Shown one piece after another: positions 1 through 37,844 of a stretch of 64,000 nucleotides of DNA; within the stretch, counting starts at the first letter, position 1, and every line of letters begins with the position of its first letter. The DNA is taken from contig OY970173.1 in assembly GCA_963707635.1 (NCBI GenBank), positions 2,496,001 to 2,560,000 on the forward strand, in the 5' to 3' direction. A model generated the notes under the pieces. It was not told where the DNA came from. It did no database searches and saw only the letters and a list, made by a program, of their open reading frames with translations. The position numbers and the translations under genes were made by a program. The stretch comes from Candidatus Latescibacterota bacterium. GTDB lineage: Bacteria > Krumholzibacteriota > Krumholzibacteriia > WVZY01 > JAKEHA01.

Positions 1-1
1 G

Positions 2-232
2 AATCAGCTCGTCGCGTGACACCTCGCGCCCGCGCTCGGCCAGCCGGGCCCGCACCGCGTCGATGTGCTTGAGCACGGCGGGTGTGAGCCGCACTACCAC
101 CTCGACTTCCTTGGCGTCGGGTGAGAGCGGCGAGCGGCCGCGAATCAGCTTCGACACCGTGTCGGAGGCGGCTGCCTCCTTCGCGTCCTCGAACGGGTCG
201 CGCCCCATCGATCGCTTGCGTCGTTCAGGCAC
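2..232 (-). CDS. Small ParA partner, probable ribbon-helix-helix protein (3' end runs off the window)
   Basis: Not in the ORF track. Manual translation from GTG at 232: MPERRKRSMGRDPFEDAKEAAASDTVSKLIRGRSPLSPDAKEVEVVVRLTPAVLKHIDAVRARLAERGREVSRDELI... It overlaps the parA stop and has GGAGG at 245-249. The strand-helix-helix pattern (VVVRL..L..ID...VSRDELI) is RHH-like. Confidence 0.65.
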   Translation of the reverse strand, partial: MPERRKRSMGRDPFEDAKEAAASDTVSKLIRGRSPLSPDAKEVEVVVRLTPAVLKHIDAVRARLAERGREVSRDELI

Positions 233-962
233 GGGACAACACTTCCTCCGTCAACTGGTAGTAGTCGAACGCCCCGCGCGACATGGGCGAATACTCGAAA
301 ATGGTCTGGTTAAAGCTCGGTGCCTCGCGCAGCGACGTATTCACCCGGATCACGGTCTTGAAGACGAGATCCTTGAACCGGTCGCGGAGCGTGTCCAGCA
401 CGTCGATCGACAGTCGGGTGCGCCCGTCGTAGAACGTGGGCAGGATGCCGAGGATCGAGGTCTGGCGCGTCGAATTGTCGTTGATCTCGTCGATGATCTG
501 CATGGTCTGGCGCGCGCCCGCCTGCGCCAGGTAGTCCATGCTCACCGGGATGATCACCTGGTCGGCGTACACGATCGCGTTGATATTGATGAGATTCACC
601 GTCGGCGAGCAGTCGCAGATCACGACGTCGCATCCGCGCAGGTTGCGAAGCGCCATGTCGAGACGCCGCTCGCGGCTGGTGCGCGACGCCAGCACCATCT
701 CGATCTCGGCCAGGTCGCGCCCGCCGGAATCGATGACGAACAGGTTCTGCCGGGCCTCGATCACGTCGACCTCGCCGTACTGGAGCAGGTCGCACAGCGT
801 GCGCTGCCCCTTCAGGTCGAACGCGATGGCCACGTTGCGCTGTGGGTCGCAGTCGACCACCAGCACCTTCATGCCGCACAGGGCCAGCCCATGGGCGAGG
901 TTGATGGCGGTGGTCGTCTTCCCGGTTCCGCCCTTGGACGTGATGATGGCGATCTTCCTCAT
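225..962 (-). CDS. parA: ParA/Soj-family ATPase (orphan, no adjacent parB)
   Basis: MRKIAIITSKGGTGKTTT deviant Walker A, VDCDPQ, ICDCSP, ILPTFYDGRT and LREAPS. ATGA overlap with the upstream gene. Confidence 0.92.
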   Translation of the reverse strand: MRKIAIITSKGGTGKTTTAINLAHGLALCGMKVLVVDCDPQRNVAIAFDLKGQRTLCDLLQYGEVDVIEARQNLFVIDSGGRDLAEIEMVLASRTSRERRLDMALRNLRGCDVVICDCSPTVNLININAIVYADQVIIPVSMDYLAQAGARQTMQIIDEINDNSTRQTSILGILPTFYDGRTRLSIDVLDTLRDRFKDLVFKTVIRVNTSLREAPSFNQTIFEYSPMSRGAFDYYQLTEEVLSRA

Positions 963-3900
963 GCCGCGTCGTCGTCCTCGTCGCCGTCGTCGGCTTGCTC
1001 CTGCTCTGAACCGCCGCGATCGCGCAGCTGCTTGCCGTACTTCTCCCACCCGAGCGCGCGGAGCTTGTGGTCGCGGTCCACGTTTCGGTCTGTCACGGCC
1101 GAGTCGATGTCGAGATCGCCGGGCGTCGCCTCGTCGCCGCCGGCGTCGGCGAACTTGCCGCGGCCGAAGACCGGGGGCTCGTGGGGGGCCTCCGGCGGCG
1201 GACTCCCGTCGCGTGGCGTGCGGATGCTCGGGGCGCTATCCGCCGGTTTCCGGGTCGGCCGGACGGCCGGCGCGTCGGCTGGCCGGCCCGGCAGGGTCGC
1301 CGCACCCGGTCGCTCGCCCAGCACGTCGTCCAGCCCGTCCGCGTGCGTCTCGGGAGCTGCCGGGGCCACCGGCCTGGGCGGCCTGGGCGGCGGGCTGGCG
1401 GCAGGTTCCCCGGGACGCTGCTCGCGCACCGCCGCCACCGCCTCCGCGCGGGTGGCGAAGGCCGAAATGAAGGTCCGAAATTCGAGGCACGCGAACACGT
1501 CGGCCAGGTCGGTCCCCATGCCCGCCAGCGCCACCGCGCCGGTGGCCTCGAACGCGCGCGCGAACTGCCCCCACCCGCTGCTCGAGATGTACTCGACGCG
1601 CGTCAGGTCGAACACGATCGCGCGCGGAGCGCGCGCGAGCTCGCGCGAAAGCTCGTCGGACAAGAGCGACACCGCGGTGGTCTCCACCACGCCCGCGAGC
1701 GTGGCCACGCGCACTCCCTCGTCGCCGTCGCTCCATTCGAGGTCCATCCCCGGCGTGCTCGCGAACGAACGCCCGCGGGCCGTCTCCTCGGCGGCGGCCG
1801 CCGCCGGGGGCTCGTCCGCGATGGGCGCCGCCACGCGCCGGAAATCGTCGATCGCGTCGGCGAACATGTCGAAGGACGCGAGCACGATGTTGAACCCGAG
1901 CATGGTGAACACGTAGTACACGTCGGGGTCCATGCCGAAGAGTTTGATGTCCCCGCCCGCGCGGCGCACCTCGCGCAGGCGCTCGGTGAACACGCCCCAG
2001 CCGCCGCTCGACACGTACTCCACGAACGTCATGTCGACGACGACCCGGTTGCGCCCGCCCGCGAGCACCTGGTCCAGCGCGGCCCGGAGCCGCTCGGCGC
2101 TCACCGTGTCGATGATGCCCTTGAGCTGGAGCACCGCGATCTCTCCGCGTTCGCCGACGGTGGTGGCTTCGATGCGCAGGCTCTGCCATTCCATCGACGC
2201 CCCCGCCGGGGTCCCGCCCGTGTCGATGCCGTGCGACGACGCCATCGTATCGGCGCCCAGGTCGCGCCGGACCGGAGGCGCGCTGACGCGCCGTTGCTCG
2301 GGCGGGAGTGCCAGGTACGCGCGCGCTTCCGCGAGGCCGGGAAACGCACGCAGCACGTCGGCGAACCCGAGCAGCTCGTACACGTCGAACACCTCGGTGG
2401 TCATCCCGCACAGCACGATGTCGCCGCCGTGGTCGCGGAGCCCGCGCACTTCGCCGACGAACAGCCCCCACCCGCCGCTCGACACGTAGGATGTCTCGCC
2501 GAGGTCGACGACGATGCGCAGTGCGCCGGCCACGATCAGGTCATGCAGCTTGCGCTCGAGCGCGGACGAAGACGACGAATCCAGGTGCCCGGCCAGCCGC
2601 ATCTCTGTGATGCCGTCGGACGACGAAACCGCGATGCCCACGCCCTCGACCCGCTCGGTGATCTCGGCCGGGAGCGGCGCGCCGTCCGGCGCGGACGCGG
2701 GGATCGCCGGGGGCGCGACCCCCGGGATCTCGCGCAGGAGGTCGTCGACCAGGTCGCGGCGCGGCGCGGGTATCGGCTCCGCGCCCGGCACCTCGGGCGC
2801 CTCACGCCGCAGGCGGTTGCGGCGCAGGTAGTCGAGGCGGAGGTCTTTGGTATTCAAATTGAGCCGCTTGAGCTCCTCGTACACCATGCGCTCGGAAATG
2901 TGCTGCGACGGGTCACGGTCGCGGTTGTACTCCTCGGTGATGCGCTTGGCACCGAAATCGGGGTTGGCGGCGATGGTGCGGATGATCGCCTTGCGCGCCT
3001 CCAGGCTCACGCGCTTCAAGCTGACGTCGTCGCGCAGGATGTCGTTGCGCAGGCCCCGCTCGCCCATGGTTTCCAGCCGCTTCTTGTACCGGTAGAAGGT
3101 CGCCGGGGAGACCCGCATCTGCTGGCAGGCATCCTTCACACTCATGCCCTGCAACTCGACCATGTCGATCAGCTTCTTGCGAATGTCGAAGAGCACGTCG
3201 TCCGCCGTCATCTTCTCCTTCACCGCCACGACGGTGATGTCGTCGCTCTGCGGGTAATCCAGCGTGAAGCGCTTGATGTCCAGATCCAGCTTGGCGATGA
3301 ATTCCTCGGGCGAGAGGTAGCCGTGGGTCTTCACCATGTCCAGCAGGCGCTCTTCGCCGTACTGCTCGCGGCGCTCGTTCATGGCCTCGGTCACGCCGTC
3401 GGTGTAGATGACGAGCATGTCGTCCTTCTTGAGGCGGACCTTCTCGACGCTGATCGAGCGGCGGAACAGCGATTCGTCCGGCAGGCTGATGCCCACCGGG
3501 AAGCCGCGCGGGTTCAGGAAGAACGTCTCCCGGGTCTCGTGGCGGTAGAGAATCATCGGGTTGTGGCCCGCGCTCGCGTAGCTGATCACGCGGTTCTTGG
3601 AATCCAGAATGACGTAGAACATCGTGACGAACATGCCCTTCTTCATGTCGTCGGTCACGAAGGCGTTCATCTTCGACATCACGTCGCTGGCGTTGCGGTT
3701 GCCGCGGGCCTCCATGCGCAGCGCGGTCCGGATCATGGTCATGACCAGCGAACCCGGCACGCCCTTGCCGGACACGTCGGCGACCACCACCCCGATGGTG
3801 TCGTCGTCGACCTGCACGAAGTCGTAGTAGTCCCCGCCCACCTCGGCCGCGGCCTGGTAGAGCGGCGCGATGTCGTAGCCGCTGATCTGCGGGCGGCGCC

Positions 3901-5215
3901 GCGGGAGCAACGACTGCTGGATCTGCTTCGCGACCTCGATCTCCTTCTGCATCTTCTCCTGCTCGAGAATCGACGTCTGCGCCTTGCGGAACTTCTCGGT
4001 GATCTCGTTGAACACACCGGCGATGGCGCCGATTTCGGCCGGACCCCGGATGTCGAGCTTGCCCTCCAGGTTGCCGTCGCCGATCGCGCGCACGCCGTCG
4101 GTGAGCACCTGGATCGGCCGCACGAAGACCTGCACCAGCCCGATGACGAGCACGAGGCCGACTGCGAAAGTCGCCAGCAGGAGCAGCGACGTCTGCAGCC
4201 GCGTGTCCCGGATGGCGGCGCTCACGGCGTCCTCGTACACGCCGAGGTGGAGCCGCCCGATTTCGAACGAGCGTCCAGCCTCCCCCTCCACCGTCACCGC
4301 CACCGCGACGTCGCGGACGTCCTGATCGCCCTGGCGGTGGCGCGACCACGAGATCGCGCCGTCTTCGAGCAGCAGCTTGCCGGCCGGGGCCTGGTAGGGC
4401 TGGAACACTTCGTCGATCTGTCCGGACGCGCGAATATTGCCGGTCGCGTCAACCAGCCGCACGTAGGCCACCTCGTTCGAGCGCGCGACGAGCTTCGAAA
4501 GCTCCGCGGTCAAGTTCGTCTGCTCGATCGAGAACTCGCTCGGGTCGGTCAGCACGGGGAGGCTTCGACTCCCGAGGCTCTCCGCCAGCCGCCGTTTCTC
4601 GACCCACTGGTTCGCGCGCTGGGCCCCGATGTCGCGCGTCTGCCGGAGGAACACGAATCCCCACAGCACCGCCATCAGCAGGAACAGGCCCCCGCTGGCG
4701 CGCACCATGAACTTGAAGCGGAGCGTGCCGCGCAGCGGCATCTTCTCGGGGAGCACCGCGGCCGAGAACGCCGCCTGGCTGCGCTTGGTCAGGATGAGCT
4801 CGTTGCCCGCGTCGGTGGTGCGGTACTCGACCCCGTCCATCAGGCGGTTGATGAGGAATACGCCGAGCCCGCCCTTGCGCCCGGTCTCGACGTACTGGTC
4901 GAGGTCGGGGTCCTTGACGCTCGAGAAGTCGAAGTTCCGGCCCCGGTCCTTCAGGTGGATGCGCACGCGGCCGGAATCGATCTCGGCCACAACGGTGATA
5001 TCGCCGCCGGCCGTCTCGTACGCGTGCTTGATGATGTTGGTGCAGGCCTCGTCGACGGCGAGCTTGGTGTTCGAGACCTCGCGCGGGCTGAAGCCCGCGT
5101 CCTCGCACACCTCCACCACGAAGTCGCGAACCCGCCCCAGCTGCCCTTCCTCCGCCGCGACCGTGAGGTCGCGGACGTTGGGCTTCCGCTCCAGCATCGC
5201 CGCCGCGCGCGCCAT
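959..5215 (-). CDS. Membrane-anchored all-in-one partner-switching protein: RsbW-like HATPase - TM - extracytoplasmic domain - TM - HAMP - SpoIIE/RsbU PP2C - HTH - 3x STAS
   Basis: Kinase motifs LAVDEACTNIIKHAY, DRG and GGLGVFLI. Two hydrophobic TM segments. HAMP (RPIQVL...EIGAIAGVFNEI). PP2C motifs VGGDYYD, ADVSGKG, SAGH, YTDG and DDIT. HTH SVKDACQQMRVSPATFYRYKKR. Three STAS repeats with Y(V/I)SS(G/S)GWG. Start may be 5197. Confidence 0.9.
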   Translation of the reverse strand: MARAAAMLERKPNVRDLTVAAEEGQLGRVRDFVVEVCEDAGFSPREVSNTKLAVDEACTNIIKHAYETAGGDITVVAEIDSGRVRIHLKDRGRNFDFSSVKDPDLDQYVETGRKGGLGVFLINRLMDGVEYRTTDAGNELILTKRSQAAFSAAVLPEKMPLRGTLRFKFMVRASGGLFLLMAVLWGFVFLRQTRDIGAQRANQWVEKRRLAESLGSRSLPVLTDPSEFSIEQTNLTAELSKLVARSNEVAYVRLVDATGNIRASGQIDEVFQPYQAPAGKLLLEDGAISWSRHRQGDQDVRDVAVAVTVEGEAGRSFEIGRLHLGVYEDAVSAAIRDTRLQTSLLLLATFAVGLVLVIGLVQVFVRPIQVLTDGVRAIGDGNLEGKLDIRGPAEIGAIAGVFNEITEKFRKAQTSILEQEKMQKEIEVAKQIQQSLLPRRRPQISGYDIAPLYQAAAEVGGDYYDFVQVDDDTIGVVVADVSGKGVPGSLVMTMIRTALRMEARGNRNASDVMSKMNAFVTDDMKKGMFVTMFYVILDSKNRVISYASAGHNPMILYRHETRETFFLNPRGFPVGISLPDESLFRRSISVEKVRLKKDDMLVIYTDGVTEAMNERREQYGEERLLDMVKTHGYLSPEEFIAKLDLDIKRFTLDYPQSDDITVVAVKEKMTADDVLFDIRKKLIDMVELQGMSVKDACQQMRVSPATFYRYKKRLETMGERGLRNDILRDDVSLKRVSLEARKAIIRTIAANPDFGAKRITEEYNRDRDPSQHISERMVYEELKRLNLNTKDLRLDYLRRNRLRREAPEVPGAEPIPAPRRDLVDDLLREIPGVAPPAIPASAPDGAPLPAEITERVEGVGIAVSSSDGITEMRLAGHLDSSSSSALERKLHDLIVAGALRIVVDLGETSYVSSGGWGLFVGEVRGLRDHGGDIVLCGMTTEVFDVYELLGFADVLRAFPGLAEARAYLALPPEQRRVSAPPVRRDLGADTMASSHGIDTGGTPAGASMEWQSLRIEATTVGERGEIAVLQLKGIIDTVSAERLRAALDQVLAGGRNRVVVDMTFVEYVSSGGWGVFTERLREVRRAGGDIKLFGMDPDVYYVFTMLGFNIVLASFDMFADAIDDFRRVAAPIADEPPAAAAAEETARGRSFASTPGMDLEWSDGDEGVRVATLAGVVETTAVSLLSDELSRELARAPRAIVFDLTRVEYISSSGWGQFARAFEATGAVALAGMGTDLADVFACLEFRTFISAFATRAEAVAAVREQRPGEPAASPPPRPPRPVAPAAPETHADGLDDVLGERPGAATLPGRPADAPAVRPTRKPADSAPSIRTPRDGSPPPEAPHEPPVFGRGKFADAGGDEATPGDLDIDSAVTDRNVDRDHKLRALGWEKYGKQLRDRGGSEQEQADDGDEDDDAA

Positions 5216-5217
5216 GG

Positions 5218-7101
5218 CTAGCGCTGCCCCTCGACCTTGCGCACGCGCTCGCGCGCCTCCTCGATGGACCGCTGGACGCTTTCGTTGGTGGGATCGATCT
5301 CGAGGATCTTCTCCCATTCCGCGATCGCCTGCGCGTACTGGTCCCTGGAGAAGAACTGCATGCCGGCCAGGTAGAGCTCGCGCACCCGCGACTTCTCGGC
5401 GTCGGTGAGCGGCGTGGTGCGCCGCTTGGTCAACGCCATGAGTTTCTTGGCGTCGGCGTGGTCGGGCTGCAGAGTCAGGAGCTCGCGCAGGTCGGTCATG
5501 GCGCCCTGGTAGTTGCCAGCGTTGTACTTGGTGAGCGCGTCGTTATACAGCGTGACGATGCGGAGCTTGCGCTGCGAGGCCGCGTAGTCCTGGCTAACCG
5601 ACTCGATCTGCTTGCGGATGCGCGCGATCGACGTGCGGGCATTCGCGTTGTCCGGTTCGTATTGCTGCACGTTGTTCCACTCCGCGATCGCCTCGGTCAG
5701 GCGGCCGTCGCGTTCTAGCTGCTGCGCGCGTTCGGAGTGCGCACGGATCCGCTCGTTGATCTTCGCATTGGTTTGATCCAGGTAGTCGTGGGCGCCCACG
5801 TTGAGCGAATCGATCGCGAGGATCGCGTGCCACTCGGTGCGCGCGCCGATCATGTCGCCCTCGTTGAACAGGTCGAGCCCGCGGGCGAAGCGCGTGCGAA
5901 TCACGGCCTGGTTCCCCAGGTCCCGCACCGCCGCCGCCTGCTGGGCCAGCACCTGCTCGCGCGCCGCGTCGCGGGCCGCGGCCGCCTCCGCGTCGTCGGG
6001 CACGAATTCGAGGACGATCAGCCACTGGTTGAGGGCTCCGGCCCAGTCGTCGCTCGCCTCGAGCGCGCGCGCCTTCTCGCGGTGGGCGTTGATTCGCGTC
6101 TCGAAGGTGCGCTGGATGAGCAGCCGCTCGTCCTCGGCGCGCTGCGCCTCGATCGCCTCGCGCTTCTCGTCGAGGGTCTGGCCGAAGCGGCCGGTGAAGG
6201 TCACGGCCTGGTTCGAACCGCTCTCGTCACGCGAGTAGAATGCATAATCCACGCCGTAGTTGAACGCCCCCACGCCGAGCCCGAACGTGGGCGTGTCGTC
6301 GTCGAATCCGACCCGCAGCGCGACCAGCCGCGAGAACACGTACTCGGCGCCGGCGTGGAAGCGCCCGTCGGCACGCTCCGGGAGATCGTACTGCAGCATG
6401 AGCCGGAGCGCGGACCCGTTGTCGAACCTGCGCGTGTACCCGGCGCCGGCCAGGATGGTTCGATCAACCGTGTCGTCCTCGAGGTCGAGCTTGTACTGGG
6501 CGCCCACGATGTCCTGCAGGTTCACTCCCAGGGAAAGCGATCGCGCCCCGTCGGGTATGTAGCGGAAGCCGATGTCGACGCCGGGCGCCGTGCTGCTGAA
6601 CGGATCCACCTGCTGGCGGCTGATCTTGAAGGTCGCCCCCGCGGCCAGATTCCCGAACATCCACCCGAAATGGCGCTCGGCCGCGTAGGAGATGAGGAAC
6701 TGGCTCTCGCTGGCGTTACCTTCGCCGAGCGGGCGGCTGAACTCGTCGTACAGATCAAAGGTGGTGCCGACGTTCATGTAGCCCACGCCGAATGCGCCCG
6801 CCGAGAGGGTCGGGTAGACGAAGCCGAAGTAGGTATAGCCCGCCCCGGTGAACTCCCCGTAGAGCGGCATGTACATCGCCATGAACTGCATCGACTGCAC
6901 GTTGCGCAACGACGCCGGGTTCCAGTACACCGAGCTGGCGTCGTCGGCGAGGCTCACGAATGCCCCGCCGAGACCGATCCCACGCGACCCGGCGCCCAGC
7001 TTGAACGTGCTCGCGGTGCCGCCGTCCTGCGCGAAGGTGGGCGTCGTCAGCGCGACGAGCGCGGCGAGCAGCGCAACGATCACAACGCTCTGGTTTCTCA
7101 C
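5218..7101 (-). CDS. PorV/PorP-like outer-membrane barrel with C-terminal TPR repeats
   Basis: GTG start overlaps the giant-gene stop. Signal peptide (...TPTFA|Q). GAGSRGIGLGGAFVSLADDASSVYWNPA motif typical of PorV/FadL-like barrels. C-terminal helical repeats such as AIAEWEKILEIDPTN. Confidence 0.8.
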   Translation of the reverse strand: MRNQSVVIVALLAALVALTTPTFAQDGGTASTFKLGAGSRGIGLGGAFVSLADDASSVYWNPASLRNVQSMQFMAMYMPLYGEFTGAGYTYFGFVYPTLSAGAFGVGYMNVGTTFDLYDEFSRPLGEGNASESQFLISYAAERHFGWMFGNLAAGATFKISRQQVDPFSSTAPGVDIGFRYIPDGARSLSLGVNLQDIVGAQYKLDLEDDTVDRTILAGAGYTRRFDNGSALRLMLQYDLPERADGRFHAGAEYVFSRLVALRVGFDDDTPTFGLGVGAFNYGVDYAFYSRDESGSNQAVTFTGRFGQTLDEKREAIEAQRAEDERLLIQRTFETRINAHREKARALEASDDWAGALNQWLIVLEFVPDDAEAAAARDAAREQVLAQQAAAVRDLGNQAVIRTRFARGLDLFNEGDMIGARTEWHAILAIDSLNVGAHDYLDQTNAKINERIRAHSERAQQLERDGRLTEAIAEWNNVQQYEPDNANARTSIARIRKQIESVSQDYAASQRKLRIVTLYNDALTKYNAGNYQGAMTDLRELLTLQPDHADAKKLMALTKRRTTPLTDAEKSRVRELYLAGMQFFSRDQYAQAIAEWEKILEIDPTNESVQRSIEEARERVRKVEGQR

Positions 7102-10100
7102 TTCGCCACCGCGATTCGGAACTTGGCCGACTTCGAGCCCGCGTTCAGCACGCACACGTAGACGCCGTTGCGCACGACTTCGCCCTGACCGTTGCGGCCG
7201 TCCCAGGTCGTCTCCTGCGGCCCGGCCTGGGCGCGCGCGTCGCCCGAGGGAATCGTCTCTTCGTACACCAGGTCCCCGGTCAGCGCATAGATCTTGAGCG
7301 AGACGTCCGCCGGAGCGTCGAGGAAGTACGCGATTCGCGTCGCCTGCGATCCGGCGCGGAACGGATTCGGATAATTGTGCGTGTACTCCTGGAAGTTCCC
7401 GCTCAACACCACCAGCGATTGCGAGGTGACCTGCCCGTCGAGCGGCTGTCCCTGCGCATCGGTCACCCCGAGCGGGAGCGTCGAGGCCGGGTCTCGAACC
7501 ACCAGGCCACCCGATCGCACTCCCACACGAATCTCCGTCTCGCGCGGCTGCGCGTCCAGATCCAGCGCCACCACCGCGTTGACCGACGCGTTGGGCGCGA
7601 TCGTGCGATCCGCGCCCCCACCCAGGAGCGAGACCACGATCGGGTTGGTGGCGGGACTGGTGACCACGTAGGGCTGCGCACCGCCGAGGTCGATCTGGAG
7701 CCGCGCGAGCGTCGCCCCCACCGAAGCGGCCGAGAGCGGCTGGCCGTTCTTGCCGATCACGGTGATCGCAATGGTGTCGATCTGGGCATCGTTCACGCTG
7801 GGGTCGCTCGCGTTGTACGCGATCTCGACGCCCAGGAGGGTCACGTCGGCCGCGCCCGCGGGCACCACGCCGGTATTGATCCCGAGACTCTGCGACACGT
7901 TGCGCACCGCCACCGCGGCGCCTTCGGTCACCATGGCGATATTCGCGGTCCCGTTCGCCACCTGGGCGGGAAGACCGCTGTTTTCGTCGGCGGGGACGGC
8001 GGAGATCGTCACCGCGATCTGGTCGGGCCCGGACGGCTGCAGCGCGGCGTTGACATCCCACGCCACCGGTGTGCCCACCACGAACGGCTTCGCGACGGTT
8101 TCTCCACCCGCGAGCGTGTACCCGGGCGGGAGGCCGATCGAGAGCTGCCCGCCGGCCGCCACGCCCGCCGCGCCGGCTGCATTGGTCACGTTCGCCGTGA
8201 CCGTGAACGGAACCCCCACGCCGACCGCGTTGTCCGTGGCCTCCGGTGGCGCGGTCACACTCGCCGCCACCGAGAGCGAGGCGCGCGGCACCGTCGTGAC
8301 GGCGACCGTGTCCGCGACGGAAGGCACCGGGTTCTGCGAGTTCTCGTCGATACCCGCGAAGGTCACGACCGCGTCCGCCGCGCTCGCCGGCAGGCCGGGC
8401 GCAATCACGCTATACGTCACCGACAACACGCCGCCAGTTCCGTCGCCAAGGTCCCGCACCGGCCCCCCACTCGTCACGATATACCCCGCGGGCAGTGCCA
8501 GCGTGGCGGTAACGTTGTCCGTCGTCGAGGTCGCGGTCACTGCCGCCCGCAACGAGAAGGTCTGGCCCACGCTCACCGTGTCGTCCACCGCACCCGCCGG
8601 ACTGGTCGCCGACAGGCTCGGAGCCGAGAGCGCGCCGCCCGTCGCCACCGTGATCGACACCTGGTCGTCCGGCTGCGACGAGAATGCCGGCGCCGCCAGA
8701 TTGACGTCGTCAGGCGTGGTCGTGAGCGTGCATGTGAAAGCGACGGCCGCCTGCGGCGCCGCCGGCGCGGTCACCGTCCAGTCGATCGCAACGCCCGCGC
8801 TAAACGCCTGCACGGGCGATTCCAGCACCGAGAACCCGGACGGGCTCGTCAGCTTCACGTCAGCCGCACCGGCGAGGCTCGCCTGACCCGCGTTCGTCAC
8901 CAGGCCCGTCACCGTGAAGGTCTGATTCGGGCTCACCACCCCGCCTACGGCGGAGCTGGTCAGCGACAACACCAGGTCGGCGCGTCGCTGCGTCACCACC
9001 AGGTAGGTGTTGTCGACCGGGGGCTGCGGAATCACCGGCTGCCCGGAGTTGTGCGACACCACCCCGGATAGGATCGAGGAAGTGAACGTCTCGAGCGCCG
9101 CGGGCGCCGCCGGTGCGGTCACGCGGAACACGAAGGTGTGGCTCTCGTCCACGGCGATCGACTGGCGGCGCAGGCTCGCGGGCGCGACGCTCGACGCGCC
9201 GTCCTTGGCCAGCGACACCCGCACACTGTCCACGTCCTCGCCGCTGTTCTGGACGGTCACGTGGATCTCGTACGCGAAGCCGGTATTGACCGTGTCGCGA
9301 TTGGCGGTCGCGTGGTTGAAGGTCCCGAAGCCGGTAGTCGCGAGAATCGCGAGGCCGGCGACCTCCTGCACGCGCACGGTGGTGGCCCCGGCGTCGGAGA
9401 GTGCGATCGTCGGGTCGTTGCGGTCGTTGCCGCGCGCCCCCAGTGCGATGTCGACCAGCCCGGTGTCGCTCCCGGTCACGATCACGCTGTATACGAGCGA
9501 GTCCACCGCGCCTCCCGGCAGGCGCCAGGCCGGCGCGCCCGAGCCGAACGCCGTCGGCGGCTGAACCACGTAGTCGATCTTCGTGGCTCCCGCGATGGAG
9601 AAGGCGACGTCGGCCGCGACCGGCGGCGTCAGGTCCGCGCTCGCCTGTCCCGTATTCCGGAGCGCCACGACGATGTTCCACGGGTTCGACTGTCCCTGGG
9701 TCACGGACGCCTGCGACGGCCGCACGCTGGTGATGTCGAGCACCGCCGGCGACTGGATCGCGACGGGTGCAGTCGCATCGAGGGGAGGATTGTTCAGCGC
9801 CACGAGGTTGCTCTGCGCCGAGTTCTCGTCAACGGCGGATACGAGCGTGGTCGTGAAGGTCTCCAGCGTCGACGACGTCGCCGACGCCGTCACCGGCCAG
9901 GCGTACGCCACGGTCTGCCCGGCGGCGACCTCCGCGATCGGAGACACCGGCTGTATCGTGCTGAGCCCATCCGTCGCCATGCCGACCACGACGTCGCGCG
10001 CGTCCGCCTGACCGGTGTTCTGCACCTGCAGGATCACGTCGAAGGCCTGGCTTTCGTTCACGGCGACCGGATTCGGGGCCGCGACGGTCGTGGTGGTGAT

Positions 10101-13100: not shown

Positions 13101-16100
13101 CGGCGTGATACCCGACACGGCGATCAAGCCCTGCGACTGCACGAGCACGCTTCCCAGCCCCGAAGACGAGACGGACAGCGCGCGCGCACTGTTGCTCTCC
13201 ACACCCGCGGTGGCCACGTCGACCATGGTCGGCCCGGTCACGCTGCCCGACTGCGTCACGTCGAACACCATCGTGTCCACTTCGCCTCCGGAGAGCACCG
13301 TCCCGCCGCCCACGAGCGCGGGCCGCACAGTGGATACCCAGCCGGCCGCCGGCGAGAACACGAGCCGCGACGTGGGTCCGGCGAGCGTGAGCACGACGTC
13401 GCTCCCGCCGGTGTTACGCACCGCGGCGCGCACCTGGAACGTCTTGCTCATCCCCTGCGTCACCTTCGGCTGCGACGGAATCACGGCGTTGAACGTGACC
13501 GCCGCCGGAGACTGGACCAGCAGGTTGCCCTTGCCGCCGAGGTTGGTGTCGGCGAACAGCGGCTGGCTGGTGTTGACGTCCTCGACCTCGAGCGCGCCCT
13601 CGATGGTCATGTTCCCGACCGTGGTCGCGTTGCCGGTGTTGTCCGAGACGTTGAACACCACCGTGTCGACGTCGCTGCCGGTGAGCAGCGTCCCTCCGGA
13701 AAAGGCCGCCGGGGTGGAGACCACGAATTGATTGGTACGGTCGACGCCGGCGTGGATGAAGCGCAGCGTCGCGGCCGTGAAGGTGACGTTCGCCCCGCCG
13801 TTGTTGGCCACCACCATGCGCACCTTGATGGGCTTGCCCTGGTCCTGGGTGAACAGCGGCTGCGACGGGATCATGGAGAGGATGGCGATGTTCGGCGCGT
13901 CCTGGACCAGCACGTTGTCCGCGACTGTGATCAGCTGGCCGAAGGGGAGGCCGTTTTCGAAGCCATTCAACTGGACCTGCGGGACATATGACGCGCTCGC
14001 GATGGATCCGCTGACGGACGTGCCCAGGAATTGCAGCGTGGTGGTACCGGGCGGCAGCGACGTCGGACCCGACGGGTTGAGCGCCGCGGTGAAGGCGCCG
14101 GCGGCGAACCGGATCGTGGTCGTCGCCGGGGAGAGGTTCACGGTGGCAAGGCCGGTGTTCACGAGCTGGACGGTGAACGCGACCGTCGCGGTCTTGCTCA
14201 CCTGGTCCGGGTCCAGCGCGTCGCCGGCCGCCGACGCCACACTCGCCGGCGTCACGACCGACACCGGGCTGCCGGTGAGCAATACGGGCGGCCAGGTGGA
14301 TGGCGCGCCGTTCTCGGTGCCGTGGGCGTCGAGCGTCACCGGATACGAACCGGGCGTGAACGTCCCCGGCACCGCCCGCGGCCGGAACGTCATGGTCTGC
14401 ATCGCGTTCCCGCCGGCGATCGCGTAGTTCTGCGTGGGCGACGCGCTGAACGTGCGCACGCCATCGGTGAAGGTAAGGCGCGTCGTCGTGGAATCCAGGA
14501 ACGCGAGCCCGCCGCCGGTGTTCCGTATCGTCGCCTGGAATGCGTAGATCTTGCCGCGAGAGGCGACCACCGGCGTCAACGTGGACGGCTCATAGGCCAG
14601 GATGGCCGCGGCCACGACTTCAACGGTCGCGCGCGGGTAAGGCGCCACCGCCAGGTCGACCACGGACTGTCCCCCCACGGTGCCGGTCGCAGCAGCATCG
14701 ATGCTGTAGAAACCCAGCGTCGCTCCGGTCTGTACGGTCACCGGGACGTTGAACACGCCGGATGCGCCCGGGCCGAGCGCGAGCCCCAGCTCGGGAGCAT
14801 TGCCGACGATGAACAGACCGGCGGGAATGAAGGTCAAGTCGATGTCGTTGATGGTCGTGCTCTGGGCCCCGTCGTTCTTGACCGTGACGGCGATGCTCGT
14901 CCCATAGCCCCGGCTCACCTGCCCCGACGCCGGCACGATGCCAGTGATTTCGATGTTGGTGACGAGCAGCGAGAGCGCGGGGAGGCTGCAGGCCACGTTG
15001 ACGGGCGCGGTATTCGCGTCCGCGCCGATGAGCGTCGCCGTCGGCGCGTACTGGGCGGTCAGGAAGGCCGGGTCGATGGCGGCCGACGCGAAGGCGAGGA
15101 TCGCGTTGCCGCTGCCCGGCACCAGCTGCTGCGCGGCCAGATTGGCCGAGTAGCTGTGGGTCCCGTCCGTGAACGAAAACGTGGTCGCGGTCGTCAGGTT
15201 GACCGACGTCGGCGACGAGTTATTGACCACCACGCTGAACGCGACCGAACTCCCCGGCACCACGATGGCCGGTGTGGGCGGGGTGTTGCACACCAGCACG
15301 GGCGGCGGCGCGAACGTGATATCGATGGTCCCGCTCGCCGTCCCGGTGGCGCTGGTCATCGTCACCGTCGACACGCCCACCGTGGTGGACGAACGCAGGT
15401 CGAACGTGATGGTGCCATTCGCCGCGATCGTCTTCGGGCTTCCACCCACGATGAAGCCGCCGAGGTTGGCCGACACGTTCACCGACAGCCCCGCCGTTAC
15501 CTGGTTGGCAAACGCGTCTCGAATGACGCCGCTGGTGATGGTCGTGGTCGAGGTGCCGTTGGCCGTGATCGTGGTGCGGGTCGCGGTCGCCGTGATTGCC
15601 CCGGCGGGTGCGGCGGGAACGACCGTCACCGCTTCACCCAGCCCCGTCACCGAGGGGTTGCCGACGGTGGCGGCGCGCACCTGGTAGGTCTGCACCTGGG
15701 TCGCGGTGACGGTCGTGACCGCGACGCCGTTGGACAGAGTCAGCGGGTTGGTGCCGAACACCAGACCGACGCCGGGATCCCCGGAGAGTGCGACCTGCGT
15801 CGCGTCGTCGTCGACGGGGTTGTTGTTGATGTCGTATGCCGTGATGGTGGCGTTCTTCGAAACCCCCGCCGTCGTCGACGACGCATTCATGACGACGGTG
15901 TAGTAGGCGATTCCGCCCGCGACCGTGGTGACGTTGAAGGTCACGCGCTCGCGTGCGGCCGGGGTGCCGTCCAGAATCGTCGCGGCCACCGTGCTAGGCC
16001 CCGCGGTGGTGGACGTGTGCAGACGCGCGACCGCGCGGCCGTTGGCCGCCGACGCGGCGATACCATCCGTCGAGTCGCCCACCGAATCGCGCAGGAACCC

Positions 16101-19100
16101 GCTCGGCGCCGGCGACGACTGGACGAGATACCTCACCGCCTGGCCCGCGACCGGGTTGCCCCACTGGTCGCGCACTTCCGTGCGCAGCGGTTGAGTCACC
16201 CCCACCGGTATCGACGGTGGGCTCGATCCGGCCACGTAGACCACGCGATACGCGGGGCCGTTGGTGACGGTCACTGTCGGGCTGATCCCGGTGGGACCGC
16301 CGCCCTGCGTCTGCGCCCCGACGGTGAACGTCTCCGCGACGGTGTCGCGCACGGTGGTCACGAACTGACCGGCGGCGAGCGTGCCCGAGACCGCGCCCAG
16401 GGTGGCATTCCCGGTGTGCAACACGTCGATAACGGTCGAGTTGTCCTGTGTCCGGTAGTTGTTGTTGGCGTCGCGCGCCTTGATGGTCACCGAGGTCACC
16501 TGGTTGGCGACGAGCGCCGTCGACCCGGTCGTTATCTCGTAGCTCGCGATCGGACCCGCGACCGTACTCACCGTGAAGTTCACCGTCTCCAGGGCCGGCG
16601 GCGCCCCGTCGAGAATGGTCGCGCGCACCAGGTTGGTCCCCGATCACGGTCCCGGTGGTCAGCGTCGTCGACACGTCTCCGGCCGCGTTGGTCGTCCCCG
16701 ACGGCGGTGCCGGCGACCCGCCGCCCTGGGTGACCGCGAACGACACCAGCTGGCCGACGACCGGATTGCCGAACGGATCGAGCACGCGCGCCGTCAAGAG
16801 CCGCGTCGCCCCCGCCACGATCCCGCTCCCATCGCCCGCCACGTTGGTCACGCGGTAGGCGGCGGCGGGTTTGATCTTTACAATGTTGGAGTAGCCTTCG
16901 AAGCTGCCGGCGTCCCGCGCCCGCACGCGCATCAGCTCGGCCACGGTGTACGATTCGTTGACCACCACCGCGCCCGCCACCAGCGTCGCCTGCGTGACCG
17001 ACAGCGGATTCCCGGTGGGGGTCGTCGTGACGTCGTCGACCGCGGTGAGCGTCACCGAGTTGCCCGCCGACGTCACCTTGTTGTTGAAGGCGTCGCGCGC
17101 CTCGATCGAGACGTTGAACGCCGCGCCCGCGATCGCGCTGTCGGCGGCGATCACCGCATAGCTCGCCACCACGCCGGTGTGGGTGACGGTCACGACTCGC
17201 TAGGTCGCCGGTGAGCCCCGCGGCTGCCGCCGCGATATCCCAGCCCCCAGCCGTCGGTCCGCGGCCGTAGACCGTCCGCGAGCCGCCGATCAGGTTGAAC
17301 GTGGTCGTGCCGACGCCGAAGTCGGTGAGGCTGAAGACCAGCGAGCTGCCCGCCTCCGGCGTCAGCGTCACCAGGCTGGTGTTGCCCGTGTCGAGGTTGT
17401 CGCTGCCGTCCAGCGCCTCCACCTTGAACGAAAACGGACTGCCCCGCCGGCGCCGTGCTGGCCGACAGGAACGTGATCTTCAGGTGGGTCGCGCCGCTCG
17501 AGACGGTGTTCACCGCGAACGTCACGCGTTCGCGCGCGAGCGGCGAGCCGTCGAGAATCTGCGCGTTCACCTGGTTCGTCCCCGCGGTCAGCGCGGTGTG
17601 GTAGGTCACGAGCCCGCGCCCGGAGCCGTTGGTGACGACGATGCCGTCGTTGGGATCGCCGTCGGTGTCGGTGAACGACGGTGTGCCGTCCGGCGCCGAC
17701 GCCACGGAGAAGGTGGCGAGCGCGCCGGGGACCGGGTTGCCGTAGAGGTCGCGGACCTCCACCTCCAGCGGGCGCGTCGTCCCCGCGGTGACCCCGCTTC
17801 CGTCGCCGCTGATCTTCACCACGCGGTAGGTGCCCGCGTTGGAAACCGAGACGACCGCGCTGGTGCCGCTCGGCGGTCCCCCGCCCGACTTCTCGGCGGT
17901 GATGGTGAACGTCTGCACGACCGTGTCCCGCACGGTGGTGGCGAACACGCCGTTGGTCAGCACCCCGGTCGCGGCCCCGAACTGCGCGCTGCCGGTCGAC
18001 GAGAGCGTGACCGACGTCGTATTGTCCAGCGTGACGACGTTGTTGCCCGCGTCGTAGGCGGTGATCGTGAGCGGCACCGTCTCGCCCGCGAGCAGCGAGG
18101 TCTGCTGCGGCACCACCGTGAAGTAGGCGATGCCGCCGGCCACGGTCTGTCACGCTGAACTCGACCAGCTCGTCGCTGGGAGGAACGCCGTCGAGGATGG
18201 TCGCGCGCACGCGGTTGTCGCCGGCGACGAGACCGGTGGTGAGCGTGGTGGCGGCGGTCCCGCTCCCGTTGCGTGGCGATCGACGCCGGCAGCACCGACC
18301 CGCCACCCTGGAACGCGACGAATGACACCTGCTCCCCCGCGACCGGGTTGTCGTAGGCGTCGAGCACCTGCGCGGTGAGCACGCGGGTCGCGCCGGCCGC
18401 GACGCCGATGGCGTCGCCGGACACCTTGGCGATGCGCTTGGCGGCCGCGGCGGAAACCGTGACGATGCCGCTCGTCCCTTCCTTGCTCCCCGCGTCGCTG
18501 ACCTTGACGCGGATCGCTTCGGCCTTGGTGTACGACTCACCGACCGTCGCCTGACCGCCAGCCAGGGTCGCACCGGTAACGAGCAGCGTCGACTGGGCGG
18601 GCCCGGGATTGATGTCGTCGATCGCGGCCAGCGTGATCCCGTTCGACGCTCCCACCACCCGGTTGTTGTACTCGTCGCGCGCTTCGATCGAGACGTTGAA
18701 GGTCGCCCCGGCCACGACACTCGCGACGGTAGACACGGCGTAGTCGTCGACGAGGCCGGTGTCGGTGACGATCAAGGGTTCGGTATCCGCGCCCAGTCCG
18801 CCGCCGCTGGTGGTGACATCCCAGTTCCCCGCCAGCGTGCCGAGCGTGTAGACCGTGCGCGCGCCGGAGGCGAGTGTGACCTGGGTGACGGTCGCGCCGA
18901 AATCGGTGAGGCTGAATTGCAGCCCGCTGCCCGCTTCCGGGGTCAGCGTGACGATGGCCGCGTTGCCGGTGTCGACGTTGCCGGTGCCGTCGACGGCCTC
19001 GACCAGAAACTGTACGCTCTGCCCCGCGGGCCGGGTCGAGGGTCCGACGAAGGTGATGCGCAGATTGGTGGCGCCGCTCGCGGTGGTGGTGTAGGTCACG

Positions 19101-21668
19101 TCGCCGACCGACACTTGCGCCACGTTGGCAGTGAACGCGTCGAGCACGTCCGCCAGACGCCGCGCCGGGCGGCGCCTGATAGCGCACCGTGATGCGGCCG
19201 TGGCGTCGGAGTTCCCGCAGCGCGCGGTGGGTTGAGGTGGTGGTCGGGTTGCGGGTCGACCGGGTCTCGGATACCAGCGACCCGTCGGCCGCGTTCTTGA
19301 TGAAAATGTCGACGCGCTCGCCGCTCTTGACGTTGCCGAACGCGTCGGTGAGCGTCGCCGTCACCACTTCGAACGAACTCACCGTGACGCTCTTGCTGCC
19401 CGGCGTGATCACGAGGTTGGCGCCCGGGCCTGCCGTGCCCGTGGCCGTGAAGTCGACGCTGGGCGTGCTTCCGCTCGCGATCAGCGCGCGCAGGCGGTTG
19501 AGCCCCACGATCGTGCCCAGGCGCCAGACATCGCAGTCGATGGTTCCGTCGGCGATGGTGACGCCGGTGCTGTCGACGCCGCCTCCGGCGACCACATCCA
19601 CGGTGCCTCCGCCACCGACGGCGCGAAACGTGACGGTGGCGCCGGAGACGAGGTTATCGAAGGCGTCGCGCACGCGCACCTTCGGCAACACCGCGACCGG
19701 CGTGTTGACCGCCGCCGACTGTCCTGCGCCGGCGACGAGTTCCACCTTGTCCGCGCCGCCGCTGGACACGGTGATGACTTGCGACTGGCCGCTGGCGGCG
19801 CCCTGCACCGCGTTCAACTGAAACAACTCGGCGCGCGTATCGGTGACGCGAAGCGGCGCGACACCGTTGTCACCGGGAGCGAACGTATACGTCGCGTCGT
19901 CGCCTGAGAGATTGACGAGTGTTCCCTGCGCGAGCGGTGCCGCCCACTCGACCACACCATTGCCCACGCCGCCGCTCGTCGTCGAGAGATTCACGGTGCC
20001 GGTGTAGCTGGTGACGACGTGGCCCTGTGCGTCGAGCGCGGTGAGCGTGACCGGCTTGATGGTCCCCGCGATTGCGTTCCCGTCGGGCATCGACCACTGG
20101 AAGCTCGCGATCCCGCCCGCGGTGAAGTTCACCACCGCGGAGTCGGTTACCGCGGTGGCGCCGATCACCGCCTTGACGGTGCGCGTGCCGACGATGGTGG
20201 TCGCCAGGGTTCCTGTCGCCTGACCGCTCCCGTTGGTGACCCCGCCCGGCTGGGTCAGCGTGGCGCCGGCGGCCGGGATGGCGGAGAGCGTCACCGACTG
20301 GCCGGAGACCGGGTTGTTGTTCGCGTCCCGGGCCGTGACCGTGATGGTGCTGGTGGAGGTGCCGTTCGCCGTCACCGGGGTGGTTGCCGCGACCAGGCTC
20401 GCGCCCCCGCTCACCGGTCCCGGCTGGAACGTGACCTGCGCCGTCGGCGTGAGCGCCTGTCCGTTGATGGTCGCCGAGACCGTCACCAGCTGCGCCGTCG
20501 TGTTCGTCACCGACCCGATCGCGCGCCCGTCGGCGCCGGTGGCGCTGCCCGGGTCGGCCTTGTTGGCGTTGCCGGTCACCGCCAGCACGACCGTGTCGCC
20601 CGCCCGCGGGTTGGCAAACGCGTCTCTCGAGGTCACGGTGACGGTGCTCTGGCTGGTGCCGTTGGCGATGACCGGGCCGGTCGCGGAAATGGTCGACACC
20701 GTCGTGCTCAACGGGCCGGGTAGCACGGAGACGGTGGCCACACCGCCGAGCACCGGCGATCCGGAGGTGGTGAGCATGGTGAGCGAATGAGGTGTCCCGG
20801 TCGTCGCGAGTGTCGCCCGGTAGTCGACGCGCACCGAACTCTGCCCGGTGGAGATCACGATGCTCGTAATCGGCGTCGAGTGATTCCCGGGCGAGTAGTA
20901 CGAGCCGTGGGTCGAAAACAAGCCGATGGTGCGATTCGCCGGCACCGCGGTGCGGTTGCCGAAGGCGTCGCGCACGACGATCCGGTACGCGGCGAAGTCG
21001 CCCGCGGTCATGGTGGTGTCGCCGGGAGCCGGATCCAGCGACGACGGGGCGCCCGCGACGACCGTCAGCTGCGGTGAGGTCGCGATGGAGACCGGGGACG
21101 CGCCCGCCGGGTCGGACGCCACCAGAAAGACGTGCACGCCGGTCGCCGTCGCGGCACTCGCCCGCGCGACGGCGCCGCCGGCGTCGTCGCCGTAAATGAG
21201 CGTGAGTGTGTTGCCGGCCGTCAACGTATCGACGTCAATCGTGACGACCTGGCCCCCCACCGTGAGCAGCGGGTTGCCCGTGGGCTCGTTGGTGCCAATG
21301 CTAACGAACGCCTCGGAGGTGGAAGACGAGGTCTGGGGCGCGCTCCATCCGGAGGGAATCGTCACGCGCACGGTGCCGTCGGTGATCGTCTCGGCCGCCG
21401 TGTAGACGATGGTCCACTTTCCGGCCGCACCTGCGGGAACCGATGCCGGCGGCGATATCGTCGCCGTCCCGCTGCCGGGGCCGGCCAGCGCAGGAACAGC
21501 GGCCGCGACCCACGCCATCGAGAGCCCCGCCGCGAGTCCCCGAGAGCACGCGCGGGTGGCGCTGCGACGGGGTCCCCGCCGCGCGGAGCCGGCGGGGTGG
21601 CGCGGCGACAGGACCCGCGCTAGCGGCGACAGGCCCCGCGAAGCTGCTGCGAAAACAGGCATGCTCAT
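7098..21668 (-). CDS. Giant (~4,850 aa) Ig-repeat surface protein/adhesin with C-terminal FlgD-Ig/T9SS sorting domain; frame broken by several indels at 16.6-19.3 kb
   Basis: Seven consecutive minus-strand ORF pieces carry continuous T/V/G/A/S-rich Ig-like sequence: 18537-21773, 17957-19147, 17368-18720, 17190-18143, 16580-17422, 15994-17193 and 7098-16628. Big_1/invasin-like repeats (ANGTSTSTITVTARDANNNPVSG). Signal-peptide-like AWVAAAVPALA|G. C-terminus NYPNPF...WDGRN...GVY...IAVAK. Start uncertain. Confidence 0.8.
15920..19078 (-). repeat. Tandem ~526-aa (~1.58 kb) internal duplication within the giant gene
   Basis: SGATNLRITF...VTLTPEAGSGLQFSLTDFG (19078) recurs as SGATHLKITF...VTLTPEAGSSLVFSLTDFG (17498). 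Both units end in ERVTF.V.TV. Offset is 1580 nt including 2 indels. Confidence 0.8.
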
Positions 21669-22022: not shown

Positions 22023-22403
22023 TCAGGGGGCAATGGCGAGCACTTTCACGATCGAGTTCCGGCTGTTGAACCCGTCGGGTTCCGACAGCGGGTTGGCGGG
22101 ATCCGGGACCCAGTTCTTCCCGTCCACCACGAACTTGTACGCGTACGTTCCCGGCGACAGCGGGTAGTAGAGCGTCCACTCGCCGTCGGAGTTGTCATCC
22201 GCCATCGGATCGGCCGTCGGCGACCAGTCGTTGAAGTCGCCGACGACACAGACCTTCTTCGCGTCGGGATTGCGATAACGAAACAGCACTCCGCCTTCGA
22301 CCAGTTGCGGGCCGGCCGCCGGGGTCGGCGGCGGCGGTCCCCCGCACCCCGTACACAGGACAGCAACGAGGACCGCGGTCCCAACCCGGCGACGTGTCAT
22401 CAT
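22023..22403 (-). CDS. Lipoprotein with CBM48/AMPK-type glycogen-binding domain
   Basis: MMTRRRVGTAVLVAVLCTGC lipobox. VCVVGDFNDW...PGTYAYKFVVDG.NW..DP.NP. Confidence 0.85.
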   Translation of the reverse strand: MMTRRRVGTAVLVAVLCTGCGGPPPPTPAAGPQLVEGGVLFRYRNPDAKKVCVVGDFNDWSPTADPMADDNSDGEWTLYYPLSPGTYAYKFVVDGKNWVPDPANPLSEPDGFNSRNSIVKVLAIAP

Positions 22404-22831
22404 CGAACCTCCAGTTCTCCGCCGCGACCCACCAGCAGAATCTCCGACGCCCGGCCCGCCGGGCCCGCGTCCACCTCGGCGGGATTGCCGGGGTCGAGAC
22501 GCCACACCGCCTCGTCGAGCCAGAAGAGGTACTGGTACCTTCCCGGAGAGAGCGTGACGACGATGTCCCACACGCCGTCTCCGTCGTCGTCGCTCATCAG
22601 ACCGATGTCGGCCTCGCCCGCGGGACCGTCCCCCTTCGCCCAGTTGTTGCCGGGCCAGCTGCCCGCGAGCTGCACGCGGTGCGCGGTCGGCGCGAAGAAG
22701 CGGAAGCGGACTCCGTCGTGGGTCACCGCCGGCATCGGCGCGCGCGAGCGCGGGGCCAGCGACGCGCACGACACCGCGCCCGCGACGGCGAGAGCCACGA
22801 TCGCAATCCGTGCGCATTTGAATCGCTCCAT
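22400..22831 (-). CDS. Lipoprotein with CBM48/early-set glycogen-binding domain
   Basis: Lipobox AVSC. FFAPTAHRVQLAGSW..NNW...GVW...LSPGRYQYLF. Confidence 0.8.
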   Translation of the reverse strand: MERFKCARIAIVALAVAGAVSCASLAPRSRAPMPAVTHDGVRFRFFAPTAHRVQLAGSWPGNNWAKGDGPAGEADIGLMSDDDGDGVWDIVVTLSPGRYQYLFWLDEAVWRLDPGNPAEVDAGPAGRASEILLVGRGGELEVR

Positions 22832-22842
22832 CGCCTTCGCTT

Positions 22843-33909: not shown

Positions 33910-34005
33910 TGCGCTGTTTCCTTTCGATACAGATGCGAGGCGTGTGCGGGGGCGCCGGCGACGATGGCATACGGGCGGGACGGCGCGTCCGGTCGAGTCG
34001 CAGCG

Positions 34006-34035
34006 ACTCTAGCAAAACCGCCTTTCGCGCGTCAA
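34006..34035 (-). promoter_or_regulatory. Sigma-70-type promoter of the ALDH-ppdK unit
   Basis: TTGACG-18-TAGAGT with a TG extended -10. Confidence 0.55.
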
Positions 34036-34125
34036 TTCCGGGTCTGGAACGCAAACGGGGCCACGACCAATGGTCGCGGCCCCGGAACAATCTGGCCGGC
34101 GGCGCGTCCGGGCGGTCGCGCGCGC

Positions 34126-35421: not shown

Positions 35422-35467
35422 GCAAGTCCCTCCTGGATCACAATCGTCGCATCCGCCGGCGCTCGCC

Positions 35468-37834: not shown

Positions 37835-37844
37835 AGCCATACCT

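Follow-up and report, generated by a model that had tools for sequence, protein, structure and literature searches.

The window considered here, the whole 64,000-nucleotide stretch of DNA at positions 2,496,001-2,560,000 of contig OY970173.1, comes from the 3.2 Mb, single-contig genome of a Candidatus Latescibacterota bacterium of the class Krumholzibacteriia (labelled G000, contig C1), and it opens with five consecutive genes encoding a giant immunoglobulin (Ig)-repeat protein, an outer-membrane barrel with a tetratricopeptide-repeat (TPR) arm, an inner-membrane partner-switch sensor, a ParA-family ATPase and part of a small, likely ribbon-helix-helix (RHH) protein (Table 1). The genes overlap or abut at all four junctions, as claimed in an earlier note made from the sequence alone: a GTGA overlap at 7098-7101 joins giant and barrel, a 2-nt gap at 5216-5217 separates barrel and sensor, sensor and ParA share an ATGA at 959-962, and ParA overlaps the small gene at 225-232. 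Scanning window positions 1-8000 for promoters and terminators gave no signal exceeding that of shuffled sequence. Throughout, G-, L-, f- and g-numbers are labels of genomes, loci, families and genera, f1 being the family of the source genome and f2 a family of the same order; the phylum survey covered 208 genomes, in 30 of which the neighborhoods were compared closely.

Table 1. Features of the five-gene cluster (window coordinates; domains are listed below the gene that contains them)
Feature	Position	Strand	Basis or remark
Giant Ig-repeat secreted protein (putative)	7098..21668	-	Big_1 / invasin D3 repeats, C-terminal FlgD_ig sorting domain
Type IX-like C-terminal sorting domain (CTD), distinct subtype by sequence	7101..7415	-	motif VRNG-x-Y ... 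F-K/R-IAVAK
PorV-family outer-membrane barrel with TPR arm, 627 aa	5218..7101	-	NF033709 score, fold matches
Inner-membrane partner-switch sensor, 1418 aa	959..5215	-	Pfam domains, transmembrane prediction
RsbW/SpoIIAB-type serine kinase domain of sensor	4784..5158	-	N-box, G1, G2 patterns
Single Cache domain of sensor, extracytoplasmic, between two transmembrane helices	4190..4648	-	sCache_3_2
PP2C/SpoIIE phosphatase of sensor	3218..3808	-	GGD, DVxGKG, YTDG, DD[IL]T patterns
Bipartite transposase-type helix-turn-helix module of sensor	2807..3217	-	IS481/IS630-like by hidden Markov model
Three tandem STAS domains of sensor	1451..2635 (approximate bounds)	-	YxSSxGWG motif in each
Sensor C-terminal tail motif D-x-K/R-L/I-R/K-x-L/I/M-G-W-x-x-Y-G-x-x-L	1025..1078	-	conserved; tracks adjacent ParA
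Orphan ParA-family ATPase	225..962	-	KGGTGKTT Walker A; without N-terminal extension
5' part of likely RHH protein, 90 aa	1..232	-	basic N-terminus RRKRSMGRDPF; ends beyond window

The barrel and the sensor form the most conserved part of the cluster. Each is present in 89 of the 208 phylum genomes; 86 genomes encode both, with the two genes adjacent in 84 by reading of coordinates and on different contigs in the remaining two. The giant family occurs in 74 genomes, 72 of which also carry the sensor, and none of sensor, barrel, giant or the window's ParA clade was found in families f3 (0 of 91) and f6 (0 of 12). Within the 30 neighborhoods, giant, barrel and sensor are adjacent in 28; 24 have ParA next, and 10, all from f1 or f2, have the small gene. 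In other phyla, 25 of the 26 loci with available upstream DNA have the barrel directly in front of the sensor, the distance from barrel stop to kinase N-box has a median of 156 nt over 61 loci, and the pair is kept amid differing flanks, with hflX upstream in all four Bacteroidota loci scanned and rnr in both FCPU426-like ones. The giant gene is adjacent in four outside-phylum loci (titles include KSB1 and Calditrichota), and it is absent from that position in 13 Bacteroidota-type and seven FCPU426-like loci. In all eight Bacteroidota genomes searched, a homologue of the giant lies at another place (E 1e-54 to 1e-82), and the seven whose C-terminus lies in the fetched DNA share the CTD subtype of the window and have no barrel of the TPR family downstream. 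In the FCPU426-like genomes, the best CTD match was tried as cognate cargo and discarded, being part of another operon; second-rank CTDs with an NGVY motif, present in four of five genomes, are candidates only. The cluster is therefore nested, with barrel-TPR and sensor as its core and ParA and the RHH gene as lineage-limited additions. Co-occurrence in other genomes, set beforehand as a test of the earlier note, was borne out, and the five genes as one fixed, indivisible unit had to be rejected, given the loci with a non-adjacent giant and the limited distribution of ParA and RHH.

The barrel scores 91.8 bits with NF033709 (PorV_fam, cut-off 90) and contains TPRs, in agreement with its first description as a PorV-family barrel with TPRs. 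Its N-terminus is signal-like, a beta-barrel is predicted, and the structure model (predicted local distance difference test score, pLDDT, 89.5) has beta strands up to residue 283 and helices alone afterwards, the best fold matches being chains 8gl6_F (E 1.6e-11) and 6h3i_F from the T9SS (type IX secretion system) translocon. The helical TPR arm, ~340 aa long, would lie in the periplasm, because the usual topology of outer-membrane barrels places a helical arm there. The protein does not qualify as PorV proper (23.9 bits with the NF033710 equivalog, cut-off 250), and a stronger PorV-family gene lies at 2.285 Mb behind a 1,296-aa CTD protein that we take as a putative PorU. PorV-family proteins account for 10 matches at 9 loci in G000, none of the others matching the TPR part of the window barrel; several of these barrels sit directly behind cargo with an atypical CTD. 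In a tree of 28 barrel domains the barrel-TPR rows fall into lineage clades; the tree does not show them to be monophyletic, as the node that would join them is open and takes in two long-branch paralogues. A SprA homologue is present in G000 over cut-off, and a SprA-like open reading frame (ORF) was found in 10 of 10 outside-phylum genomes, over cut-off in five. A search confined to GldM and GldN, out of the GldLM motor and GldKN ring of the canonical T9SS, found neither in G000, and its controls were equally silent, which makes it uninformative.

The sensor comprises, from its N-terminus, an RsbW-type kinase (residues 20-144), a transmembrane (TM) helix (171-189), the Cache domain, a second TM helix (343-361), HAMP, a PP2C phosphatase (470-666), a double helix-turn-helix (HTH) module (667-803), three STAS domains, a disordered linker and the tail, with HATPase_c_2, two TM helices, HAMP, SpoIIE and three STAS domains called by Pfam and TM prediction. 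The kinase motifs are intact across 62 sensor homologues (N-box in 60, G1 and G2 in all 62), as are those of the phosphatase (GGD, DVxGKG and YTDG in all 62, DD[IL]T in 61), and each of the three STAS domains of the window sensor has the YxSSxGWG motif at the expected phospho-serine position. A GHKL serine kinase, a PP2C phosphatase and STAS domains, together with their catalytic and phospho-site motifs, thus make up a partner-switch module of the RsbW/RsbV/RsbU type. SypE of Vibrio fischeri is likewise described as a single protein that both phosphorylates, as a serine kinase, and dephosphorylates a STAS protein, the downstream component SypA (PMC10120452). The window sensor differs from SypE, a response regulator, in its input, with no receiver domain among its Pfam hits and TM-Cache-TM-HAMP in its place, in its additional HTH, fused STAS domains and tail, and in its linkage to an outer-membrane barrel. 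The earlier note had recognized the kinase, phosphatase, STAS and extracytoplasmic domains, all of which were found, and had missed the bipartite HTH at residues ~667-803. That module matches an IS481 hidden Markov model with E 1.2e-13, far under the family cut-off; a fold search returned no match at E <= 0.001, with TnsB, Pax and Tc3 as weak hits, all with E > 0.06. It is kept in all aligned sensors, in degenerate form in the FCPU426-like ones, and from its sequence we infer that it would bind DNA. Neither SigB, SigF nor SigG was found over cut-off in G000 (TIGR02980 best at 133 bits against 234), and therefore an output of the SypA type is preferred. Control of another sigma factor is possible; a partner switch of that kind has reportedly been found in Chlamydia.

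The giant gene was first described as a ~4,850-aa Ig-repeat CTD cargo in one open frame. Ig repeats and a CTD-like end are indeed present; the single open frame is not, since the giant's frame contains 12 internal stops in this assembly. Compared with an intact 4,820-aa orthologue in genome G002, the gene is collinear with six frame changes, each net +1, near 19250-19160, 18275, 18150, 17435, 17200 and 16640 (about 2.6 kb), with additional compensating indels near 19,250-19,160, and ~4,850 aa is therefore a read-through length; intact ORFs in relatives reach 5,918 aa. On either side the window copy is stop-free over 3,176 aa (C-terminal) and 806 aa (N-terminal). The frameshift region is internally repetitive (67% identity over 913 nt), two low-depth single contigs of relatives each lack one base, one at 17435 and the other at 18150, and DNA reads of three runs contained only relatives, at a small share, with near-identical pieces that miss the break sites. 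Elsewhere in the genome, 98 loci sampled from 817 ORFs gave 10 flagged loci, of which nine were set aside (seven shadow or wrong-frame ORFs, two pieces of the giant), leaving one clear split. A third parA-like gene, outside the window at ~209.9-210.9 kb of G000, is frameshift-split in this assembly; taken with the single split in 98 loci, this marks the shift cluster in the giant as local. Assembly errors are the likelier cause of the frameshifts, rather than pseudogenization.

A hydrophobic, signal-like stretch lies at residues 44-62 of the giant counted from 21668, the start codon being uncertain. Only Ig-like Pfam families were found in the four intact giants scanned, and the designation adhesin, drawn from the Ig repeats and from the absence of any catalytic domain in Pfam, is accordingly putative. 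The CTD reaches 26.4 bits with FlgD_ig in the window copy (cut-off 27) and 34.4 in G002, and 19.6 bits with TIGR04183, under the cut-off of 23. On a profile of giant CTDs excluding the window's own it scores 139 bits, with a runner-up of 86 among 108 CTD-like hits in a genome that encodes about 108 proteins with a terminal CTD-like domain, and judged by these profile scores it is a distinct subtype.

The sole parB of G000, at 433 kb, stands beside its own parA (433-435 kb), 31% identical to the window ParA, which is therefore an orphan; this upholds the earlier claim and answers the concern that the gene might cluster with chromosomal Soj and parB. The window ParA clade occurs in 77 of the 208 phylum genomes, G044 having a more distant adjacent copy, while neither family f7, genus g12 nor any of the other phyla examined has a ParA in the cluster. 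At least 800 nt of downstream sequence was available for 63 of the 69 distinct sensors whose C-terminus is complete, and in these 63 loci sensor tail and adjacent ParA were either both present (32 loci, 28 with a pattern-matched tail and four with a variant tail recognized by eye) or both absent (31 loci). In genus g12, which belongs to the order of the source genome, the sensor is short, and the fused STAS domains, the tail and ParA are missing together. The tail is thus a likely candidate for a ParA dock, as read from its sequence distribution. The suggestion that ParA localizes the complex or the adhesin survives in part, as ParA tracks the sensor tail and does not track the adhesin.

The small gene, 90 codons long and only partly inside the window, has weak RHH_1 hits in 15 of 20 homologues (best E 7e-4, the window copy under cut-off), which partly supports its assignment as an RHH-like gene beside ParA. 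Its nearest named clusters in the atlas are at 0.88-0.89, a comparison with solved structures returned unrelated hits only, and its basic N-terminus recalls that of the ParB of the genome. It is confined to families f1 and f2 of one order and looks like a late addition. The RHH protein as general ParA partner was rejected, since most ParA lineages lack both the gene and the room for it, the latter having been measured at all other ParA loci except that of G044. A ParA-family ATPase with a small RHH partner is known from ParF/ParG-type systems. In McdAB, too, a small partner whose N-terminus is basic follows the ParA (10.1101/2022.06.09.495121). The window system differs from both, in that most lineages with its ParA lack a small gene and the constant correlate of ParA is the sensor tail.

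From domains, intact catalytic motifs, gene linkage, a SprA homologue and an orphan ParA, all directly observed, we infer the later steps of a trans-envelope signaling chain in which type IX parts feed a SypE-like partner switch, a reading to which we give a probability of about one half. The giant would be exported by the type IX-like translocon, through SprA, and handed to the PorV-family barrel, which would be the cognate shuttle of its unusual sorting domain and hold it outside. Loading, export or pulling of the giant would change the contact between TPR arm and Cache domain, and the changed contact would act via HAMP on the balance of kinase and phosphatase, setting STAS phosphorylation. 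The output would be SypA-like, via STAS proteins and the HTH of the sensor, rather than the release of a sigma factor of the SigB/SigF type. A cassette added later in Krumholzibacteriia (three fused STAS domains, tail and ParA, with RHH in one order) would position the sensor, the tail serving as ParA dock. More tentatively, the cluster may represent an undescribed class of cell-surface signaling, common to several uncultured phyla, with a type IX shuttle that doubles as receptor: the barrel holds the giant, its periplasm-spanning TPR arm drives a kinase/phosphatase with its own DNA-binding module and, in Krumholzibacteriia, a C-terminal peptide docks ParA.

The central contact was modeled by complex prediction with TPR arm and Cache domain, each as a 62-row alignment. 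The score was 0.42, with 0.00 for the best control, the runs shared at least 40% of contacts, and the partners had a pLDDT of at least 81. With scores no higher than 0.60, 18 of 157 solved complexes attained the mark, as did both mismatches that passed (2 of 215). The model weakly supports the proposal that the arm may touch the Cache domain, for which gene linkage provides a good prior, and the trans-envelope chain of the earlier note is accordingly strong in its barrel-sensor link by genomics, weak in the same link by the complex model, and not sustained in its five-gene composition. Several observations weigh against the chain. A score of 0.42 lies in a range more often wrong than right unless the contact was likely beforehand, and alignments that share one phylogeny may inflate it; related genomes also share descent, and the counts given above stand for few independent events. 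Conservation within the sensor is lowest in the Cache domain (29% mean column identity), and Cache domains commonly bind small ligands. Cargo-PorV pairs are common in G000, which makes giant-barrel adjacency alone ordinary, and the sole exception among the outside-phylum loci, L151 (KSB1), has a sensor without a barrel upstream, in a genome with a second, complete locus. In FCPU426-like genomes the TPR arm is about half as long, and giant matches were weak in three and lacking in two of the five. Lastly, the tail is found together with the fused STAS domains as well, and in most cases with the TPR gene, and partners other than ParA are possible.

Some of these points would suit another arrangement, which we regard as possible and on balance unlikely: a small molecule would be the input of the Cache domain, production or export of the giant would be under the control of the switch, and barrel and sensor, without touching, would share the operon for joint expression only. 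Consistent with such co-regulation, sCache_3_2 matches 42 of the 62 sensor homologues, a weak profile match links the domain to the ligand sensor DcuS, support from the complex model is weak, and SypE and SypA govern biofilm with no outer-membrane partner described in the accessible part of that report (PMC10120452). However, the constant companion of the sensor across the phyla examined is the barrel and not a giant to be regulated, and none of the other PorV-family proteins of G000 matches the TPR part of this barrel. The same parts could instead form a mechanical tether, in which giant, barrel-TPR and sensor span the envelope, the HTH grips the chromosome, ParA places the assembly and kinase and phosphatase act as on/off switch. 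Retention of the HTH, the tracking of ParA with the sensor tail, and the joining of ParA-type ATPases to cargo by short charged peptides of their partners (10.1101/2022.06.09.495121) agree with this idea, yet it is improbable, as the HTH stays where ParA is missing (f7, g12 and the other phyla examined) and known ParA docks are N-terminal whereas the sensor tail is C-terminal; the second HTH copy on a free STAS protein, found in all four giant-adjacent outside loci, fits protein docking or regulation no less than a tether.

The least probable reading is that of a conserved neighborhood of independent modules, in which the giant is a decaying pseudogene here and ParA-RHH an unrelated partition-like cassette. 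The at least six frameshifts in 2.6 kb, compared with one clear split in 98 loci, would fit decay, the synteny extends to seemingly unrelated genes, and the RHH gene is limited to one order. Against decay stand the six net shifts that are all +1 and inside an internally repeated region, the long stop-free parts on both sides, and the relatives' single, low-depth contigs that lack one base at two of the break sites. As to independence, the barrel-sensor pair outlives all other synteny, and ParA, fused STAS domains and tail are lost jointly in g12.

Returning to the trans-envelope chain, an outer-membrane barrel whose periplasmic extension contacts an inner-membrane transducer is known from the TonB-dependent FecA/FecR/FecI system, which differs from the window in barrel family, transducer and output, the likeness being one of logic only. 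Cognate shuttle genes lie directly downstream of T9SS cargo genes (PMC12618676, PMC10994853), and SprB/SprF, Fjoh_3952/Fjoh_3951 and PorV with type A CTDs resemble the window in that a large CTD cargo is followed by a barrel shuttle gene and SprA is present, as far as these accounts describe them (PMC12618676, PMC10994853). Unlike SprF, the window shuttle belongs to the PorV rather than the PorP/SprF family, its cargo CTD is FlgD_ig-like, it has the 340-aa TPR arm, and a sensor gene comes next. Rv1364c of Mycobacterium tuberculosis shares with the window the presence of sensor, PP2C, kinase and STAS on a single chain, and differs in its PAS-PP2C-kinase-STAS order, its one STAS domain and its regulation of SigF (PMC9138534), a sigma type not found over cut-off in G000. 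In Porphyromonas, the CTD-bearing surface protein PorA has been proposed to relay a signal to the inner-membrane sensor of PorXY (PMC7712824); the PorA-PorXY-SigP route uses a histidine kinase and an extracytoplasmic function (ECF) sigma factor, and its account, in the part accessible, contains no TPR-armed dedicated barrel (PMC7712824). Each module of the cluster thus has a known counterpart, in cargo-shuttle pairs, SypE/SypA, Rv1364c, PorA-PorXY and orphan ParA. In a literature search that covered few subscription journals and no supplements, no description was found of a partner-switch sensor coupled to a PorV-family barrel that carries a TPR arm, in line with the earlier statement that no such system was described, and 10.1101/2023.11.21.568195 makes no mention of T9SS, PorV or the phyla concerned.

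If the barrel-sensor contact is true, the system would be categorically new. For the sensing of the state of type IX-secreted surface proteins, the PorA-PorXY proposal, in its accessible part, gives no physical route (PMC7712824), and the cluster offers a concrete relay through two small soluble parts, the TPR arm and the Cache domain. The fused HTH is a candidate output for a partner switch without a SigB/F-type sigma factor, and the sensor tail a candidate C-terminal ParA dock. The high conservation in several uncultured phyla suggests that the cluster serves a central lifestyle function, for instance attachment.

Beyond the window start lie genes for a 395-aa TPR protein, for two STAS proteins of 133 and 130 aa, for a membrane protein of 728 aa and for a lamin-tail protein; the two free STAS proteins carry an SSxGWG motif like that of the fused STAS domains. 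These genes before window position 1 (L164:5733-11949) are syntenic across much of the phylum, and atlas look-alikes of the 728-aa protein have GATase1_like and VWA domains. In all four giant-adjacent loci outside the phylum, a free STAS protein is fused at its C-terminal side to a copy of the second HTH of the sensor (L135:14109-14762, L136:12572-13252, L137:14070-14783, L139:13270-13953), and a long linker plus TPR-like repeats take the place of STAS domains at the end of the sensors from L135-L137. Three Bacteroidota genomes (L181, L186 and L187) have a STAS gene with SSAGWG several genes downstream of the orphan giant.

A second cargo-shuttle operon, outside the window at ~230.9-241.9 kb of G000 (L203:396-11447), encodes a CTD cargo, a PorV-family barrel with a FlgD-like tail, a ~1,030-aa protein, ExbB, ExbD and TonB, and a cargo-shuttle-ExbBD-TonB gene order, alike by ORF sizes, recurs in four of five FCPU426-like genomes, the fifth having broken ORFs (L204-L208; Pfam domains checked for L204 and L206). 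As a lead, ExbBD-TonB could power a type IX-like translocon in G000. Within the window, upstream of the giant, positions 22023-28352 encode a CTD-like cargo, a barrel with a weak PorV-family match and proteins bearing CBM48-type, glycogen-binding domains; synteny of the CBM48 genes with the giant holds for most neighborhoods of f1, f2, f4, f5, f8 and f9, not for f7. The G+C content of window positions 34001-44000 is 62-64%, compared with about 69% elsewhere in the window.

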